NCBI GenBank assembly: GCA_048887225.1
Contig: JBHLJY010000011.1
Location: forward strand, 1 to 64,000
Reading direction: 5' to 3'
DNA length: 64,000 nt
DNA from: Candidatus Hodarchaeota archaeon
GTDB lineage: Archaea > Asgardarchaeota > Lokiarchaeia > Sigyniarchaeales > SOKP01
Of the stretch, positions 57,343 to 63,732 are shown piece by piece. Position numbers and translations under genes: made by a program. Below the pieces are notes generated by a model, which was not told where the DNA came from, did no database searches, and was given only the letters and a program-made list of their open reading frames with translations. Numbering within the stretch: position 1 is the first letter of the stretch; the number at the start of each line of letters is the position of its first letter.

Positions 57343-60300
57343 TTGACTTATATTAAAAAAATTAGCATGTCAGGTTTCAAATCCTTTGGAGATCGAACGG
57401 TAACAGTTAAGCTTTCAAGCGGCTTTACTTGTATTGTTGGGCCTAATGGTGCTGGAAAGTCTAATATCATTGATGCGTTATGCTTTGCATTAGGAAGATT
57501 AAGCAAGAAGACAATGAGAGCAAAATCCCTAGAAGATCTTATTTTTGCGGGTTCAAAAGGTAAAAATCCTGCTAATAGGGCTATGGTTACTTTGCACTTT
57601 GATAACTCTGAAAGCGTATTTCCGGGTGGCGCAAACGGAGATTTTACTATTAGTCGAACTATAAAGAGAGGCGGGGGGGGTGGTTATAAAATGAATGGTA
57701 AAAAAGCCACTCGACAACAAATTCTTAATGCCCTAGCTACAGCTAATATAGATCCTGATGGAACTAACCAATTTGTCCTTCAAGGTAAGATAGTCGAATT
57801 AACTCATATGAACTCTGAGGATCGCAGAAGATTTATTGAAGAACTTATTGGGCTTCAAAAATACGATGAAATGAAAGATGCAACACTAAAGGAACTTGAA
57901 AAAGCAGAGCGAGATCTTGGCCAATTTGAGGCAATCTTCAATGAAGTATCTGCTCAATTAAGAAAAGTTGAAAAGGAAAAAAATGACGCGCTTGCATGGC
58001 GTGAACTAGATGATCAAATAAGTCATTATAACGCTCAATTAATCTCTTTGAAAATTTCAAAATTACAAAAAGAAGAAGAAGAATTAGATAAAAAAATCGA
58101 AGAATCTGGTAAAGTCATTGAAGAATTACAAGAAAAAATAGTTAGACAAGAGGATATTCTGAAACAAGAAACCCTCGTTATGGAAAATATCCAAAAAACT
58201 ATAACTGAAAAAGAAAAAGAAAGAGAAGAAATAAACGAAGGTATTACGCAATTAAAGACGCAGTTATCTTCTAATCAAACTACTTTAGATTTAGCTGAAA
58301 AATCAATTGAAAAATTAAGACTAGAAAAGGAAAATTTAGAAAACTTACTAATGACTCTTGAAGAGGGTCAGAATTTTGATTCTCAAATTAAAATTGTAAC
58401 TATAGAAATCTCTGAAAAAGAAGCACAAATAGAAAATGCAAAACAAGATATTGAAAAAAGGCAGCAAAACCAAGCTGAACTAGATATTAAAATTAATAAT
58501 AGTGAAGATGAAAAATCTAATTTTAAATTAGAAATTTCGAAAGTTAAACAACAAATCTCATCAAACAAGGCACAAATTAAACTTCTTCGAGAAAATATAA
58601 AAAAAAATAAAGATAAGAAAAAGAATTTAGAGGCAGAATTAAATAGATTAAAGGGAGAGGCTGAGAGTGTAGAAGATGCTGTTGAAGCGACAAGAAAAAT
58701 TGAAAGCGAGATTAGAAAAAGAATTGAAGACTTAAAAAATAAAATTTCTGAAGAAAATAAGAGACAAATGAATTTAGAAAACTCAGTTAGTTCTACACTA
58801 AAAGTGAAAAGTGATTTAAATTCAAAATTATCTGGTTTACAAGCAACATTATCGTCTCTTAATACAGAAATTAAAATGAAAAAAGAGACTATTGCGGAGT
58901 TGAATACGAAAAAAGCAGACATTGGAAAAAAAATTAAAGAATTAAGTAAAGGTAAAGAAACGGAAGAAATTATAAAAGAACTCATAAAAGAAAAAGAAAA
59001 TAATATTAAAAAAATTACTAACTTAAAGGCTAAATCCAAAAACGAGGATTCAATTTATCGCGAGAACGAACAAAATTTTGAATTATTAAAATTGAAACAA
59101 AACTCTATTGAAACTGAAATTATTGATAATAAAGGAAAAATTTCAAACATCAATACCGAACTAAAAATATTTAAAAAAGAATTAATGAACTTAGAGCGTG
59201 AAAAACGAAATTTAGACTTAATTATTAATGATTTGAACGCTAATATCTCAAAAACAGGAAAAGAAATAAAAAACTTCAATATAAAAAAAGAAAATATCCA
59301 AAGACGGCTAAATGAACTCTCTAAAGAGAAGGAAACTTTATTGAACAGGATTGAAAATACAGAAGAAGAATATGAGAAAAATAAAGAGGATATCACAGGA
59401 ATTCTACAAATCCTAAATATGCTTACTCAAAATATCGATGTGTCTGTAGAATCTATTAAGGGCTCTATACAACAATCAAATACCGAAGCGATTAATACAT
59501 CTGCGGAAGATTTTAGAAAATTCGTATTAGACATTGTTGATATAATGAAAACTCTAGAGAGCGTAGGTGGTGACGCAGATGAAATATCTGAAATGACAGA
59601 TATGCTTAATTCTATAGTTCAAACATTAGGGATTTTTACTGAAAATGCTGATGCTACAATTGAACAACTTATTAATAAAGTAAAGGACTCAGCTGATATT
59701 GCAGTACAAAGTTCTACATCAGATTTTGATAGTTTTGTTCAAGACTTAACATATATCCTTGAAAATGTACATTTGTCTTTAAGAAAATTAACTTTATCTA
59801 AAAGTCAAGAGCTTTATAAACAGTTAGAAGAAATTTCAAATAATATCAAATCTCAAGATGATGACTTAAATGATATTGAGAGAAAACTAACAATAGTGAG
59901 TAGTCAAAATAAACATGATTCAGAAAAACTCTCAGCATCAAAACGAAGGCTTGAGGAAGTTCACAAAAGAATGAAAGATTTAAACTTAAAAGAAGAAAAA
60001 TATAAGAAAGAAATAGAGGAAAGGAATAAGAAAATAAAAGAAAGACAAAGTAATTATGATGATTTAAATAATGAAATAAATAAATTAAAGGAAATAAAAG
60101 ATAGATACTGGGATAATATTTCTGAAATTCAAAATGAGAGTGATAGAATCCAAATTGAATTAAACAATAATCAAGAAAAACTTCAAGAACTAGAAGGAAT
60201 TCAAACTTTATTTGAAAATATAGCAGATATTGACAATATAATGCTTGAATTGAATAATACTATAGAAGAAAAGAAAAAACTAATAATCGATACTGGAACG

Positions 60301-61800
60301 AAAATTAATAAGGTACAACAAGAAGCAGAATCTTTACAGAAAAAGATAGAAACTTTAACCAGCGACAAAGAGAAATTTTGGGAAACAACTGAGGATATAC
60401 AGATCAAAATAGATGAAGAAAATAAAAAATTAGAAGAAACAATAGATGTTCTAAGAGGTCTCGATAATATAATGAGAATTATCCATTCAATTGAAGAATT
60501 AAAAAAAGAAAACGTAGAAGCAAATAAAAACATTGAACTAAGCAAAAAAAAGATGGATAACTATAATTCTGAAGTTGATAAAATCCAAAAAAATGTTGAA
60601 GATAAACAAAGAGTAATAGATACATTAAGAGATGAAAAGGCTGCAGAATTAGAAGAGCAAAAGAAAGCTCAAAATAAATTAAATAAGTTAAATAAAAATT
60701 TACAGAAAACTCAAGCTAAATTAAATGAATTATATAAAAATAAAGAAAGAGAACAACAAATAATCAAAATTGGAGAGAATATCAAAGAGACAGAAAAACA
60801 AACAGAAGTTTTAGTAAAAAAAATTGGAAAACTTGATGAAAATTTAGAAAACGAAATCAAGAAAAAAGATGCAAAACAGGCGGAAATAGATGAATTTATT
60901 AAAGAAAAAGATGAATCTTGGAAAAAGCAAAAACAATATCAAAATATAATTACTGATCTTAAGTCAGATCTTTCAATGGAGAATTCTAAAATAAACAATT
61001 TTGAATCTAAAAAATTTATTTGTATTGATCAGATTGAAACTTTATATGAGAGATCAAAAGATTATGGTACTCTACCTCCAGTAACTGATGAGATCACGGA
61101 AGAGGGCCTACAATCGGATATTGAAATTGCTACAAAAAAGAAAAAAGCACTTGAGCCCGTCAATTTAAAAGCTATTGAACAATACGATGTTGTTAAAGAA
61201 AGATTTGATGAAATAGATATGCGAAGACAAACAATTCAAAGAGAAAGAAAGGCAATTCTTGACTCAATTGATAAAATTGAATTAGAAAAAACACGTACCT
61301 TTATGAAAGCTTATCACGAAATTAATCGTGAGTTTTCACGGATTTTCCAGAAACTTTCTCCTGGTGGTTCAGCAAAAATGATTCTGGATAGACCTGATAA
61401 ACCCTTTGAAGGCGGAATTAGCATTGAGGCAAGACCAAGGGGTAAAAAGATTAGTTCCCTAGAAATTTTAAGTGGAGGTGAAAAAACATTAGTAGCATTA
61501 TCATTTATTTTTGCTGTTCAAGAATTTTATCCTGCTCCGTTTTACATTTTAGATGAGATTGATGCCGCATTAGACGGTCCAAATGTTCATCGCGTTAGTA
61601 TGGTGCTCAAAGAATTCTCAAGCCAAGCTCAATTTTTAGTGATTAGCCATCGAGAAGAAAATATTGTTAATGCAGATAGAATTTATGGAGTTTCGATGCC
61701 GCAAAGCGGAATCACTGATATATTTAGTGTCGATTTAGAAGAAGAAGCAAAAAGACTTCTTGAACTTGAAGATGTCGTGCCTGAAGTTGGAGAGGGCTAA
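57343..61800 (+). CDS. smc: Chromosome partition ATPase Smc with extended arms and non-canonical helical apex
   Basis: GFKSF, Walker A GPNGAGKSN, Q-loop VLQG, PVNLKAIEQY, LSGGEK, ILDEIDAALD, ISH; followed by scpA and scpB. Confidence 0.93.
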   Translation: MTYIKKISMSGFKSFGDRTVTVKLSSGFTCIVGPNGAGKSNIIDALCFALGRLSKKTMRAKSLEDLIFAGSKGKNPANRAMVTLHFDNSESVFPGGANGDFTISRTIKRGGGGGYKMNGKKATRQQILNALATANIDPDGTNQFVLQGKIVELTHMNSEDRRRFIEELIGLQKYDEMKDATLKELEKAERDLGQFEAIFNEVSAQLRKVEKEKNDALAWRELDDQISHYNAQLISLKISKLQKEEEELDKKIEESGKVIEELQEKIVRQEDILKQETLVMENIQKTITEKEKEREEINEGITQLKTQLSSNQTTLDLAEKSIEKLRLEKENLENLLMTLEEGQNFDSQIKIVTIEISEKEAQIENAKQDIEKRQQNQAELDIKINNSEDEKSNFKLEISKVKQQISSNKAQIKLLRENIKKNKDKKKNLEAELNRLKGEAESVEDAVEATRKIESEIRKRIEDLKNKISEENKRQMNLENSVSSTLKVKSDLNSKLSGLQATLSSLNTEIKMKKETIAELNTKKADIGKKIKELSKGKETEEIIKELIKEKENNIKKITNLKAKSKNEDSIYRENEQNFELLKLKQNSIETEIIDNKGKISNINTELKIFKKELMNLEREKRNLDLIINDLNANISKTGKEIKNFNIKKENIQRRLNELSKEKETLLNRIENTEEEYEKNKEDITGILQILNMLTQNIDVSVESIKGSIQQSNTEAINTSAEDFRKFVLDIVDIMKTLESVGGDADEISEMTDMLNSIVQTLGIFTENADATIEQLINKVKDSADIAVQSSTSDFDSFVQDLTYILENVHLSLRKLTLSKSQELYKQLEEISNNIKSQDDDLNDIERKLTIVSSQNKHDSEKLSASKRRLEEVHKRMKDLNLKEEKYKKEIEERNKKIKERQSNYDDLNNEINKLKEIKDRYWDNISEIQNESDRIQIELNNNQEKLQELEGIQTLFENIADIDNIMLELNNTIEEKKKLIIDTGTKINKVQQEAESLQKKIETLTSDKEKFWETTEDIQIKIDEENKKLEETIDVLRGLDNIMRIIHSIEELKKENVEANKNIELSKKKMDNYNSEVDKIQKNVEDKQRVIDTLRDEKAAELEEQKKAQNKLNKLNKNLQKTQAKLNELYKNKEREQQIIKIGENIKETEKQTEVLVKKIGKLDENLENEIKKKDAKQAEIDEFIKEKDESWKKQKQYQNIITDLKSDLSMENSKINNFESKKFICIDQIETLYERSKDYGTLPPVTDEITEEGLQSDIEIATKKKKALEPVNLKAIEQYDVVKERFDEIDMRRQTIQRERKAILDSIDKIELEKTRTFMKAYHEINREFSRIFQKLSPGGSAKMILDRPDKPFEGGISIEARPRGKKISSLEILSGGEKTLVALSFIFAVQEFYPAPFYILDEIDAALDGPNVHRVSMVLKEFSSQAQFLVISHREENIVNADRIYGVSMPQSGITDIFSVDLEEEAKRLLELEDVVPEVGEG
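59392..59769 (+). repeat. Two gapless 55-aa protein-level repeats flanking the Smc midpoint
   Basis: aa 684-738 versus 755-809 share 16/55 identities with no gaps. Confidence 0.8.
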
Positions 61801-61818: not shown

Positions 61819-62823
61819 GTGTTAATAATTTCAGATGAGAAAAGTTCTATGAAAGATATCGATTTTTACAAATGGACAGTAAAGGAATTAAAAGAATTTT
61901 GTAGTAAGAATAATATAAAAATACCCGCAAAGTCTAGAAAAAAAGATATCGTAGAACTTATTCAAAATATAGTATCACATCCTGATTTTATTGATAGATC
62001 ACAAGAAGAAATGTTAGAAGAAGAAATAGTTGCGGAATTTGTTGATGAAGATCTTGCGTTATTAAGAAAAGAGAAAATGGATTTAAAATTTTGGCAAAAA
62101 CCTCCCTATTCTTCATTATTGGATCTTGAATTAGCTAAAGATTCTGAACTAGTATTTTATGATTTAGCTAACTTGATTGAAAAATTCTTTTCTAAAATGC
62201 TTCAAGAAGATTTAATTAATTATAAAATTTCAGGAATTGCACTAAAATCAGCAGCATCTTTACATCATTATAAAATTTCTAGCATAATAAAAGAAGAAGA
62301 ACAGATTCAAAAAATGGAGGAACTAGAAAAATTAAGGGCTAGACATTCAAGAACGATTCCTAAATCATTACCGCAACCTACAAAACCTAAAATGCAATTA
62401 GCCACAAAAGAAGAATTATTTGATGCAATGAGAGCTGCAATCATTGAAACTATGCAAAACAAAGAAAAATTGAAACGTCGACGGTTGCACAGAGAAGAAG
62501 AAAAACAGAAAAGATTACAAATGAAGTCAAAAGCAAAATTACCTAAAGAACTCTTAAAACACATTAGCGGAAAAGAACAATCTATAGAAGAATTACATGA
62601 AAGCTGGTTTAATAGAATAAAAGGAACAATTAATCTTAACAATGTGGATACGAGTTTTTTTGATCTTCTCAAGATAATAAAAAGCGACGAAAAAAGTCGC
62701 ATTGGCAGGAAGTTTGCTCTTGTAAGATTGTTCTTAGCCCTAATGTTCTTGAGTACTAATAATAAAATTGAGTTATTTCAAGATGATGAATTTAAAGATG
62801 TTTCAATTAGTCTTAAAAAATAA
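61819..62823 (+). CDS. scpA: ScpA-type kleisin with extra N-terminal HeH/SAP-like domain
   Basis: DLANLIEKFFSKM..NYKISGIALKSAASL..K (kleisin N domain), LFLALMFL..KIELFQDDEFKDV (C winged helix); lies between smc and scpB. Confidence 0.85.
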   Translation: MLIISDEKSSMKDIDFYKWTVKELKEFCSKNNIKIPAKSRKKDIVELIQNIVSHPDFIDRSQEEMLEEEIVAEFVDEDLALLRKEKMDLKFWQKPPYSSLLDLELAKDSELVFYDLANLIEKFFSKMLQEDLINYKISGIALKSAASLHHYKISSIIKEEEQIQKMEELEKLRARHSRTIPKSLPQPTKPKMQLATKEELFDAMRAAIIETMQNKEKLKRRRLHREEEKQKRLQMKSKAKLPKELLKHISGKEQSIEELHESWFNRIKGTINLNNVDTSFFDLLKIIKSDEKSRIGRKFALVRLFLALMFLSTNNKIELFQDDEFKDVSISLKK

Positions 62824-62856: not shown

Positions 62857-63732
62857 TTGAATAATTTTAATGAAGATTTAGATGAGAATTCTAAAGAAGA
62901 TAATGAAGATCATTTAGATCAGGAGTCAAAAGAAGAATCAAATGATCTTTCAAATGAAGAAATTGATGAAATTCCCAAGATTCAATCTCAAGGAAGCGCT
63001 ACTAAAGGTACTAGTGAAGAAATTATTGACGATATAATTTCAAAAAGCGAGATCGATGCTCAAATAGGATTTTCTTCGAAGTCTGATCTTTCTGAAGAAG
63101 ATATGTTAGTAAGACAATTAAGGGATTTTCATCGAAATCAAATTGAAGCTTCTCTTTATGTAGCAGGCAGACCATTGAGTATTGAAGAATTATCAACTAA
63201 ACTCGAAATTAAAAAAAAAGAAGTTGAAGAATTAATCAATGAAATTGCTTTCGATTATTTAGATCGTTCAACTGCCCTGGTAATTGCTCAAATAGGAGAT
63301 AGCTACCAAATGCAAATTAAACCTGAATATGCAGAAAAAGTCTCAAAATTAGCTAAAGGTGGTGCTATAGCAGAGAGGTACTTAAGAACATTAACTATTA
63401 TCGCTTTGAAACAACCTATTTTGAAATCTTTAGTTGTGAAAATAAGAGGAAGCGGAGCTTATGAGCATATCAAATATCTTCAGGATAACGGTCTAATCGC
63501 TGCGGTGAAAAAAGGAAGAACACACGAGTTAACTACAACGGATAAATATTCTGAAATGTTTGGATTACCAAAAGATATAGAAGAACTGAAAAGAGTAATG
63601 ATCTCGCAATTAGGTCTTGATGAAGTAGAATCTGGAGATGAAATTTCTTATGAAATTGAAGTACCTGCCGAAGATAATGTATTTTCTGAAGATGAAGAAT
63701 CATCTGAAAATGAAGAAAATACTCAAGAATAA
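62857..63732 (+). CDS. scpB: ScpB (kite) with acidic terminal extensions
   Basis: IEASLYVAGRPLS, LRTLTIIALKQPI, IRG..YEHIK.L, GRT..TTDKYSEMFGL. Confidence 0.92.
   Translation: MNNFNEDLDENSKEDNEDHLDQESKEESNDLSNEEIDEIPKIQSQGSATKGTSEEIIDDIISKSEIDAQIGFSSKSDLSEEDMLVRQLRDFHRNQIEASLYVAGRPLSIEELSTKLEIKKKEVEELINEIAFDYLDRSTALVIAQIGDSYQMQIKPEYAEKVSKLAKGGAIAERYLRTLTIIALKQPILKSLVVKIRGSGAYEHIKYLQDNGLIAAVKKGRTHELTTTDKYSEMFGLPKDIEELKRVMISQLGLDEVESGDEISYEIEVPAEDNVFSEDEESSENEENTQE

Follow-up and report, generated by a model that had tools for sequence, protein, structure and literature searches.

Introduction

The hinge is regarded as a defining part of SMC-kleisin complexes, where it connects the two arms and binds DNA; a function as a DNA gate is under discussion. 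In all characterised members of the SMC family, the arms are connected at the apex, be it through a hinge, a zinc hook or a helical interface (PMC4255302, PMC6856136). RecN is hinge-less, and PMC6856136, citing the D. radiodurans structure, describes its two monomers as joined by hydrophobic contacts between helical coiled-coil domains. A 'hinge-less' SMC cluster of marine Actinobacteria, with SMC-type heads and a coiled coil and with neither hinge nor zinc hook, has been recovered by metagenomics (Sussfeld et al. 2025, PMC12153180); a regular SMC is reportedly not found alongside it, and its description includes neither a conserved apex module nor operon partners. Here we analyzed a stretch of 64,000 nucleotides (nt) from a Candidatus Hodarchaeota archaeon (assembly GCA_048887225.1, contig JBHLJY010000011.1, positions 1 to 64,000), hereafter the window, which carries a long-armed SMC gene (57343..61800; all coordinates of the window given below lie on the + strand). 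We call its product the hingeless SMC. It resembles Smc-ScpAB of B. subtilis and Pyrococcus in its head sequence, its ATPase motifs, its long antiparallel coiled coil and its operon with kleisin and ScpB, but differs from them in lacking a globular hinge, in having longer arms and a duplicated helical tip, and in having partners that are extended at their N-termini.

Asgard genomes carry more than one SMC-kleisin-kite operon, and paralogues in Asgard and TACK archaea have been described (Yoshinaga & Inagaki 2021, PMC8665677; van Hooff et al. 2025, bioRxiv 10.1101/2024.01.07.573240). These papers tabulate Promethearchaeum with several SMC-complex genes and distinguish canonical or condensin/cohesin-related from SMC5/6-related classes; the text and supplements searched contain no mention of a hinge-less form. 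The literature, with subscription-only papers outside the scope, was also searched for a hingeless SMC of Asgard or Loki archaea, including by organism, locus tag and accession; no description of such a protein or of its duplicated apex was returned, and the marine cluster was the only hinge-less SMC found.

Results

A long-armed SMC protein without a detectable hinge

The hingeless SMC gene encodes 1485 amino acids (aa) from a TTG start, and its homologues share the start MTYIKK at the same position. Pfam SMC_N covers residues 3-1458 (PF02463, E 2.5e-45), and all ATPase motifs are intact. The N-terminal head half (aa 1-170, 57343..57852) contains Walker A (GPNGAGKS, aa 33-40) and the Q-loop region (VLQGK, 145-149), with a family conservation of 0.83-0.98, and the C-terminal head half (61183..61800) contains the signature LSGGEK (1376-1381), Walker B (ILDEIDAALD, 1402-1411) and the H-loop (VISHRE, 1433-1438), with a conservation of 0.89-0.97. 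The protein scored 584 bits with TIGR02168 (SMC_prok_B), over the cut-off of 567, and 614 bits with the archaeal-type model TIGR02169, under the cut-off of 729.

The SMC_hinge model PF06470 gave no match to E 1, either to the whole protein or to aa 560-940, and was likewise unmatched in seven distant family members scanned with Pfam, among them P0128, P0138, P0141 and P0148. The same model detected the hinge of the other SMC of this genome at E 3e-33 or, in another scan, E 2e-34. No cysteine occurs within aa 640-860, which excludes a CxxC motif and thus a zinc hook.

The ascending coiled-coil arm (aa 171-675, 57853..59367) is about 505 aa long, against about 330 in the canonical paralogue, with a heptad periodicity of ~3.5 and 30% hydrophobic residues; the descending arm (aa 841-1280, 59863..61182) was covered by the conservation and periodicity analyses. 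The arms comprise ~570 residues per strand versus ~330 in canonical SMCs, or ~85 nm versus 50 nm at 0.15 nm per residue. Two conservation islands stand out in the descending arm, aa 1021-1050 (60403-60492, conservation 0.78) and aa 1111-1140 (60673-60762, 0.82), with neighbors at ~0.6. An elbow, a contact between arms or a site for a partner may lie there.

The apex is composed of two similar repeat units

The tip consists of repeat unit 1 (aa 676-740, 59368..59562), which forms the ascending tip helix, a variable acidic loop (aa 741-748, VGGDADEI, 59563..59586) and repeat unit 2 (aa 749-810, 59587..59772), which forms the descending tip helix and is homologous to unit 1. A hidden Markov model (HMM) of the unit detects exactly these two copies, with iE values of 1.8e-25 and 2.3e-22. 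The conserved post-apex segment that follows (aa 811-840, LSLRKLTLSKSQELYKQLEEI..., 59773..59862, conservation 0.83) contains a motif common to the head-less proteins described below and belongs to the shared module. In a gap-free alignment, the 55-mers 684-738 and 755-809 are identical at 16/55 positions and reach a BLOSUM62 score of 87, a value attained by 0/20,000 shuffles. Another 20,100 pairs of 55-mers drawn from this coiled coil reached at most 74, and the second-best partner in the entire protein scores 31. BLASTP gave E 2e-8, and hhalign of the two halves of a 15-sequence family alignment gave a probability of 98.4% and E 4e-15. These comparisons show that the two tip helices are homologous through an ancient internal duplication, which is a property of the whole family.

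The initial annotation had recognized this region as a duplicated 55-aa amphipathic helix around a central Gly-Gly turn. Its placement of the apex is exact, residues 684-809 corresponding to nt 59392-59769, and G742-G743 is indeed the midpoint of the chain. The ungapped similarity of the 55-mers is borne out by the shuffles, BLASTP and hhalign, and the existence of two homologous copies stands, but the unit HMM revises their length to ~62-65 aa. The Gly-Gly turn is not a conserved center: Gly occupies position 742 in 47/110 homologues and position 743 in 13/110, and no column of the loop 739-754 is conserved among the homologues. The apex had also been described as more hydrophobic and acidic than the arms and as lacking the basic patches of DNA-binding hinges. 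Lys plus Arg make up 4.8% of the apex versus 19.8% of the arms and hydrophobic residues 42-44% versus 30%, in agreement with that description, and the net charge of the apex is -16 over 126 aa. Asp plus Glu are slightly below their level in the arms, so 'more acidic' is true only as net charge.

This make-up is constant across 15 divergent module sequences (Lys plus Arg 4-8%, Asp plus Glu 15-24%, hydrophobic 41-47%), which share only 15-35% identity between lineages. Among 110 full-length homologues, the apex is an island of conservation, with values of 0.90 at residues 691-720 and 0.83-0.85 at 781-840, compared with 0.6-0.75 in the arms and 0.9-0.98 in the heads. Conserved hydrophobic positions account for 40% of each apex helix versus 17-19% in the arms. 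Invariant apex residues include I688, L692, L695, I699, V703, I706 and I710, which have equivalents in unit 2. Occupancy of the hydrophobic core face is 0.87-0.88 in the apex, and that of its flanks is 0.40-0.53 versus ~0.25 in the arms. The best-fit periodicity is 3.67 in unit 1 and 3.63 in unit 2, which is hendecad-like, versus the ~3.5 of the arm heptads.

Searches for a known family behind the module returned only scattered sub-threshold Pfam matches (WXG100, DUF948, DUF6507, apolipoprotein), and an ESM-Atlas feature search found no named cluster above 0.89. A WXG100 or EsxAB-like identity (PF06013) was rejected, as the best of 15 modules scored 25.2 bits against a cut-off of 27.3 and the rest at most 16, at inconsistent positions.

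The tip is predicted to be a plain helical hairpin

AlphaFold2 was run on aa 600-900 with a 37-sequence family alignment. In the model, one helix spans residues 601-741 and a second spans 747-899, both without a break; a 5-residue loop (742-746) connects them, and there is no beta structure. The mean predicted local distance difference test (pLDDT) score is 83.9; it is ~95 in the arm (residues 610-670 of the ascending arm) and falls to 71-77 in the apex and to ~58 in the loop. The model supports the view, already taken in the initial annotation, that the globular hinge is absent and replaced by a plain, all-helical antiparallel hairpin, in line with the missing PF06470 match. Because the two homologous helices lie antiparallel, the topology would also give the tip an approximate two-fold axis (dyad) across the hairpin. 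A homodimer prediction of aa 630-870 with the family alignment scored 0.00 and was made without controls; it counts neither way.

Foldseek, which the initial annotation had proposed as a check, returned antiparallel coiled-coil hairpins as the best matches. With Foldseek and VIA-align, the top matches were SMC arm fragments (5xg2, 5nnv) and the cytoplasmic hairpins of chemoreceptors (2ch7, 3g67, 1qu7), all of which are generic antiparallel hairpins. The chemoreceptors are the best non-SMC structural match (Foldseek E 8e-5, VIA Z 12.3-12.7), and their long antiparallel hairpins, which have a conserved tip, pair side by side into four-helix bundles. The likeness is one of shape only, with a template modelling (TM) score of ~0.39, 7-14% identity and no match to Pfam MCPsignal, and such Z values are common for long helices.

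The module characterizes one order of Asgard archaea

Searching with just the apex region retrieves at least 168 proteins, nearly all of 1474-1487 aa and labeled Loki-, Prometh-, Thor-, Hod- or Hermodarchaeota. The distant full-length members P0128, P0130, P0138, P0141 and P0148, with an apex identity of 20-35%, came from an exhaustive HMMER search. The module is present in 133/400 genomes of the phylum, nearly all of them in the order of the window: it was found in 113/134 genomes of the window's family (f1), in 1/1, 14/14 and 2/4 genomes of families f2, f3 and f4, and in 2/247 elsewhere. Exact-sequence look-up finds the protein annotated as 'Smc' in Ca. Lokiarchaeum ossiferum (UYP46603.1), Promethearchaeum syntrophicum MK-D1 (DSAG12_00820) and Ca. 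Harpocratesius repetitus.

Three side observations concern this distribution. Two genomes outside the order carry the module at E ~1e-70 (G039, contigs C234, C256 and C278; G063:C70:3544-4182), in one case on short contigs of a 72%-complete bin; mis-binning or lateral transfer could account for this. In a single-contig genome (G188, L046:4393-8844, + strand), the hingeless SMC is split into frames of 878 and 529 aa that lie ~225 nt apart with the total length kept; possible explanations include a frameshift, an error of sequencing and a pseudogene. The metagenomic protein P0124 (1094 aa) begins within the apex module (47% identity), and its final part does not resemble an SMC head; it could represent a further module-bearing architecture or the product of a chimeric contig.

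The hingeless SMC is related to canonical archaeal SMCs

Three SMC systems occur in the order in varying combinations: the hingeless canonical-type SMC, a hinge-bearing canonical-type SMC of ~1200 aa with a strong hinge match (type A), and a very distant SMC of ~1150-1190 aa with a weak hinge match and its own four-gene operon (type B). Among genomes at least 90% complete, type A is restricted to some genera (g1 in part, g2, g7, g10 and, in family f3, g18-20), and the large genera g11, g12 and g13 have only type-B hinge matches. Most of these genomes show only the weak type-B hinge matches, and in those the hingeless protein is the sole canonical-type SMC; its role is likely housekeeping.

The genome of the window, which is 98% complete, has the hingeless SMC and type A and lacks type B. 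Its type-A protein has 1193 aa and a normal hinge (G000:C15, L014:6543-10124, - strand) and is directly followed by a short ScpB-like kite of 188 aa (L014 5990-6556, - strand). No kleisin adjoins it, and PF02616 (ScpA) matches a single protein of this genome, namely the kleisin from the hingeless operon. Both SMCs might use this kleisin, or the type-A kleisin might be too divergent to detect.

Among solved structures, Pyrococcus Smc is closest to the heads of both the hingeless SMC (P. yayanosii Smc, 5xei, 401 bits, E ~1e-118) and type A (381 bits). For both, eukaryotic SMC1-4 rank second and SMC5/6 trail widely; the hingeless head matches SMC1-4 at E 1e-34 to 1e-54 and SMC5/6 only at E 3e-10 to 4e-7. 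We inferred a head-domain tree of 40 rows under LG+C20 with type B as the outgroup and no eukaryotic sequences. The hingeless and type-A clades were each fully supported, and both fell within the canonical archaeal SMCs, which included those of Thor, Frey and Thermococcus; this argues that the hingeless protein is a canonical-type SMC that has lost its hinge. An SMC5/6-like identity was ruled out by the head matches and this tree. The type-B clade was set off by a branch of 3.08 substitutions per site, and deeper nodes lacked resolution. A sister relationship of the hingeless and type-A clades, which would imply an order-specific duplication, did not appear in the free tree and was not rejected by the approximately unbiased test (p 0.265).

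The type-B system is nearly universal in the order (L034:2558-8950, + strand, and also L038, L042, L045 and L049). Its operon encodes a 420-475-aa protein of no known kind, the SMC of ~1150-1190 aa, a 215-268-aa protein and a protein of ~171-187 aa, the last of which is weakly ScpB-like in the one operon scanned. Type B is a candidate for the SMC5/6-related complex of the literature.

Kleisin and ScpB genes follow the hingeless SMC gene

Textbook ScpA and ScpB have no N-terminal additions of the kind seen in the two genes downstream of the hingeless SMC. The first encodes an ScpA-like kleisin of 334 aa (61819..62823), whose C-terminal part matches PF02616 weakly and below threshold (E 5.5e-4, 20.4 bits against a cut-off of 24.6) and whose N-terminus contains an HeH/SAP-like segment, with sub-threshold Pfam hints of Ish1, SAP and HeH at aa 17-49 (window 61819-61980). 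The second encodes the ScpB kite subunit of 291 aa (62857..63732), which matches PF04079 at aa 95-246 (E 3e-36) and has an N-terminal extension of ~94 aa (window 62857-63140). The order SMC-kleisin-ScpB is kept in 6/6 other genomes inspected, seven with that of the window, and in the six an orthologous, syntenic kleisin lies 3′ of the hingeless SMC. This arrangement indicates that the hingeless SMC most probably works with its own kleisin and ScpB as an SMC-kleisin-kite complex.

Head-less proteins carry the module in tandem

The apex module also occurs twice in tandem, as four repeat units, at the N-terminus of 920-1180-aa proteins without an ATPase head (P0142, P0143, P0145, P0151, P0152 and P0159; loci L036:2997-6122, - strand, L040:2688-6044, + strand, and L044:3981-6746, - strand). 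After the modules come ~300 aa of beta-rich sequence and a short coiled coil, and the proteins end in an H1/HC2-like tail rich in Lys and Thr. The motifs DFxxFVxD, S(S/T)xEFDxFIxDI and LxKLxLxNSxxKYLxLEEI are common to the modules of the SMCs and of the head-less proteins. Examples are DSAG12_01461 of P. syntrophicum and MCF2141576 of Harpocratesius, and L. ossiferum also has one; the proteins occur in family f3 and are absent from the genome of the window and from its family. No Pfam or PADLOC family was found for these proteins. AlphaFold2 modeled the tandem modules of the Harpocratesius protein as four helices of ~125 aa with 3-5-residue loops (mean pLDDT 86.9), and Foldseek of this model was uninformative (TM at most 0.27, root-mean-square deviation 28-95 Å). 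The occurrence of the module in head-less proteins makes it an autonomous evolutionary unit and suggests module-module association.

Discussion

We favor, with moderate confidence, a reading in which the apex of the hingeless SMC is an arm-joining interface that stands in for the hinge by way of a helical bundle between two tips. One face of each apex helix would pack on its partner within the hairpin, and the extra conserved hydrophobic surface would pack on a second hairpin, so that two SMC tips form a four-helix bundle and take over the arm-joining role of the hinge. A fuller, wider hydrophobic face together with a shift in periodicity is expected of helices that each have more than one buried seam, as they do in four-helix bundles, and the widened face and 3.65-residue periodicity of the apex sequences fit a bundle of more than two helices. 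The tip is acidic and scarce in basic residues, which makes DNA binding by it unlikely; unlike hinges, it would probably leave DNA contacts to the heads, kleisin and ScpB.

The bundle is probably side by side, an arrangement that we prefer because one kleisin can then still bridge both heads. The initial annotation had compared the tip with the apex of RecN. RecN shares the absence of a hinge, and the comparison holds as an analogy, but no sequence relationship between the two is detectable (TIGR00634, 28 bits against a cut-off of 408). RecN is a bacterial protein of ~550 aa whose arms do not reach one third of the length of SMC arms; it has no kleisin and forms a rigid end-to-end rod dimer. 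An end-to-end dimer of this type would set the heads of the hingeless SMC ~170 nm apart, and therefore fits poorly with one kleisin bridging two heads. We take the side-by-side arrangement to be at least as likely as the RecN-like rod. Rad50/SbcC offers another parallel: it is an SMC-superfamily ATPase whose small, non-hinge dimerization element sits at the tip of a helical hairpin, but the hingeless SMC differs from it in having no CxxC hook, no Mre11-like neighbor seen beside the gene and a kleisin and a kite as partners. The hinge-less cluster of marine Actinobacteria is bacterial, is known only from ocean gene catalogues and is set apart from the hingeless Asgard SMC by its description.

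Several points weigh against an arm-joining bundle. Self-association is predicted indirectly, from the width of the hydrophobic face and from periodicity, and such a face might just as well be used by a different partner or in a contact made by folding back. The model fixes neither a parallel nor an antiparallel association of the tips, and AlphaFold2 confidence is lower in the apex than in the arms. The hingeless SMC of the window (P0001) shares 34% identity with P0138 over the units and 26-35% over the arms; with P0148, the units share 16-25% and the arms 24-30%. Between families, the apex thus diverges as fast as the arms, and its deep conservation is one of pattern and composition, not of residues.

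The different partner could be a protein for which the apex serves as a docking platform, either the head-less two-module proteins or the N-terminal extensions of kleisin and ScpB, with arm closure being heterotypic or absent. We consider this unlikely, although both extensions are unusual and the head-less proteins, with the same module twice in tandem, coexist with the hingeless SMC in Promethearchaeum, Lokiarchaeum and Harpocratesius. The genome of the window and essentially all of family f1, in which 113/134 genomes have the SMC module, show one module match and no head-less protein, and it is in f1 that the apex is most conserved. Head-less proteins that are missing from many genomes cannot explain the conservation of the apex there. 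Moreover, their module 1 is equidistant from all lineages of the SMC apex (19-28% identity) and shows no sign of co-evolution with the apex of the same genome.

In Smc-ScpAB, kleisin bridging alone is able to hold two SMC heads together. An apex that merely caps a single hairpin stably, with the SMCs held only at their heads by ATP and kleisin, would therefore be conceivable, as would a tip that folds back on the arm or head as a regulatory contact. The AlphaFold2 monomer is self-consistent as a plain hairpin, and residue identity in the apex is not conserved across families, as this explanation would allow. We nevertheless regard it as improbable: a two-helix cap needs one hydrophobic seam, whereas the apex has a widened face and about twice the conserved hydrophobic positions of the arms, and its strong depletion of Lys and Arg would be unusual for a solvent-exposed coiled coil. 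The characterised SMC-family proteins, moreover, all join their arms at the apex.

A bolder possibility, which we advance as a speculation with little expectation that it is right, is that the duplicated hairpin is a portable, self-recognizing apex module, which pairs side by side to close one SMC dimer and head to head to link dimers or recruit other module-bearing proteins. Both pairings are conceivable because the two helices of the module are homologous and antiparallel and so would present a near-identical surface in either orientation. The head-less two-module proteins of Promethearchaeaceae (e.g. DSAG12_01461), with their histone-H1-like, Lys-rich tails, would then plug into the SMC tip as a DNA anchor, which the acidic apex itself does not have. 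If true, the nearest relatives of eukaryotes in culture would couple their SMC motor to chromatin in a previously unknown way.

That the protein is not a chromosomal SMC at all but a Rad50- or RecN-type repair protein, a defence SMC (Wadjet JetC, Lamassu LmuB) or an assembly or pseudogene artefact is refuted for practical purposes and seems to us extremely improbable: the missing hinge, as in Rad50 and RecN, and generic PADLOC matches of P0001 to mad3, LmuB and JetC over the head and coiled coil are outweighed by SMC_prok scores of 584-614 bits, Rad50 NCBIfam scores of at most 89 bits against cut-offs of 700-1087, a RecN score far below threshold, the lack of a CxxC hook in aa 640-860, kleisin and ScpB neighbors without any PADLOC match where Wadjet JetABCD or Lamassu LmuABC would have their characteristic partners, and over 100 full-length homologues (1474-1505 aa), which come from independent contigs and in part from closed genomes and exclude an artefact.

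The arm-joining bundle remains the reading that we prefer for the hingeless SMC. The protein would represent a natural Smc-ScpAB-type complex in which the hinge has been swapped for an acidic helical module and the arms are ~60-70% longer, conserved across one Asgard order. Its presence in cultured strains (P. syntrophicum DSAG12_00820, L. ossiferum UYP46603) and the small size of the module open the question to experiment. [quoted passage not shown] The hingeless complex would thereby provide a natural test of which hinge functions chromosome organization can do without.

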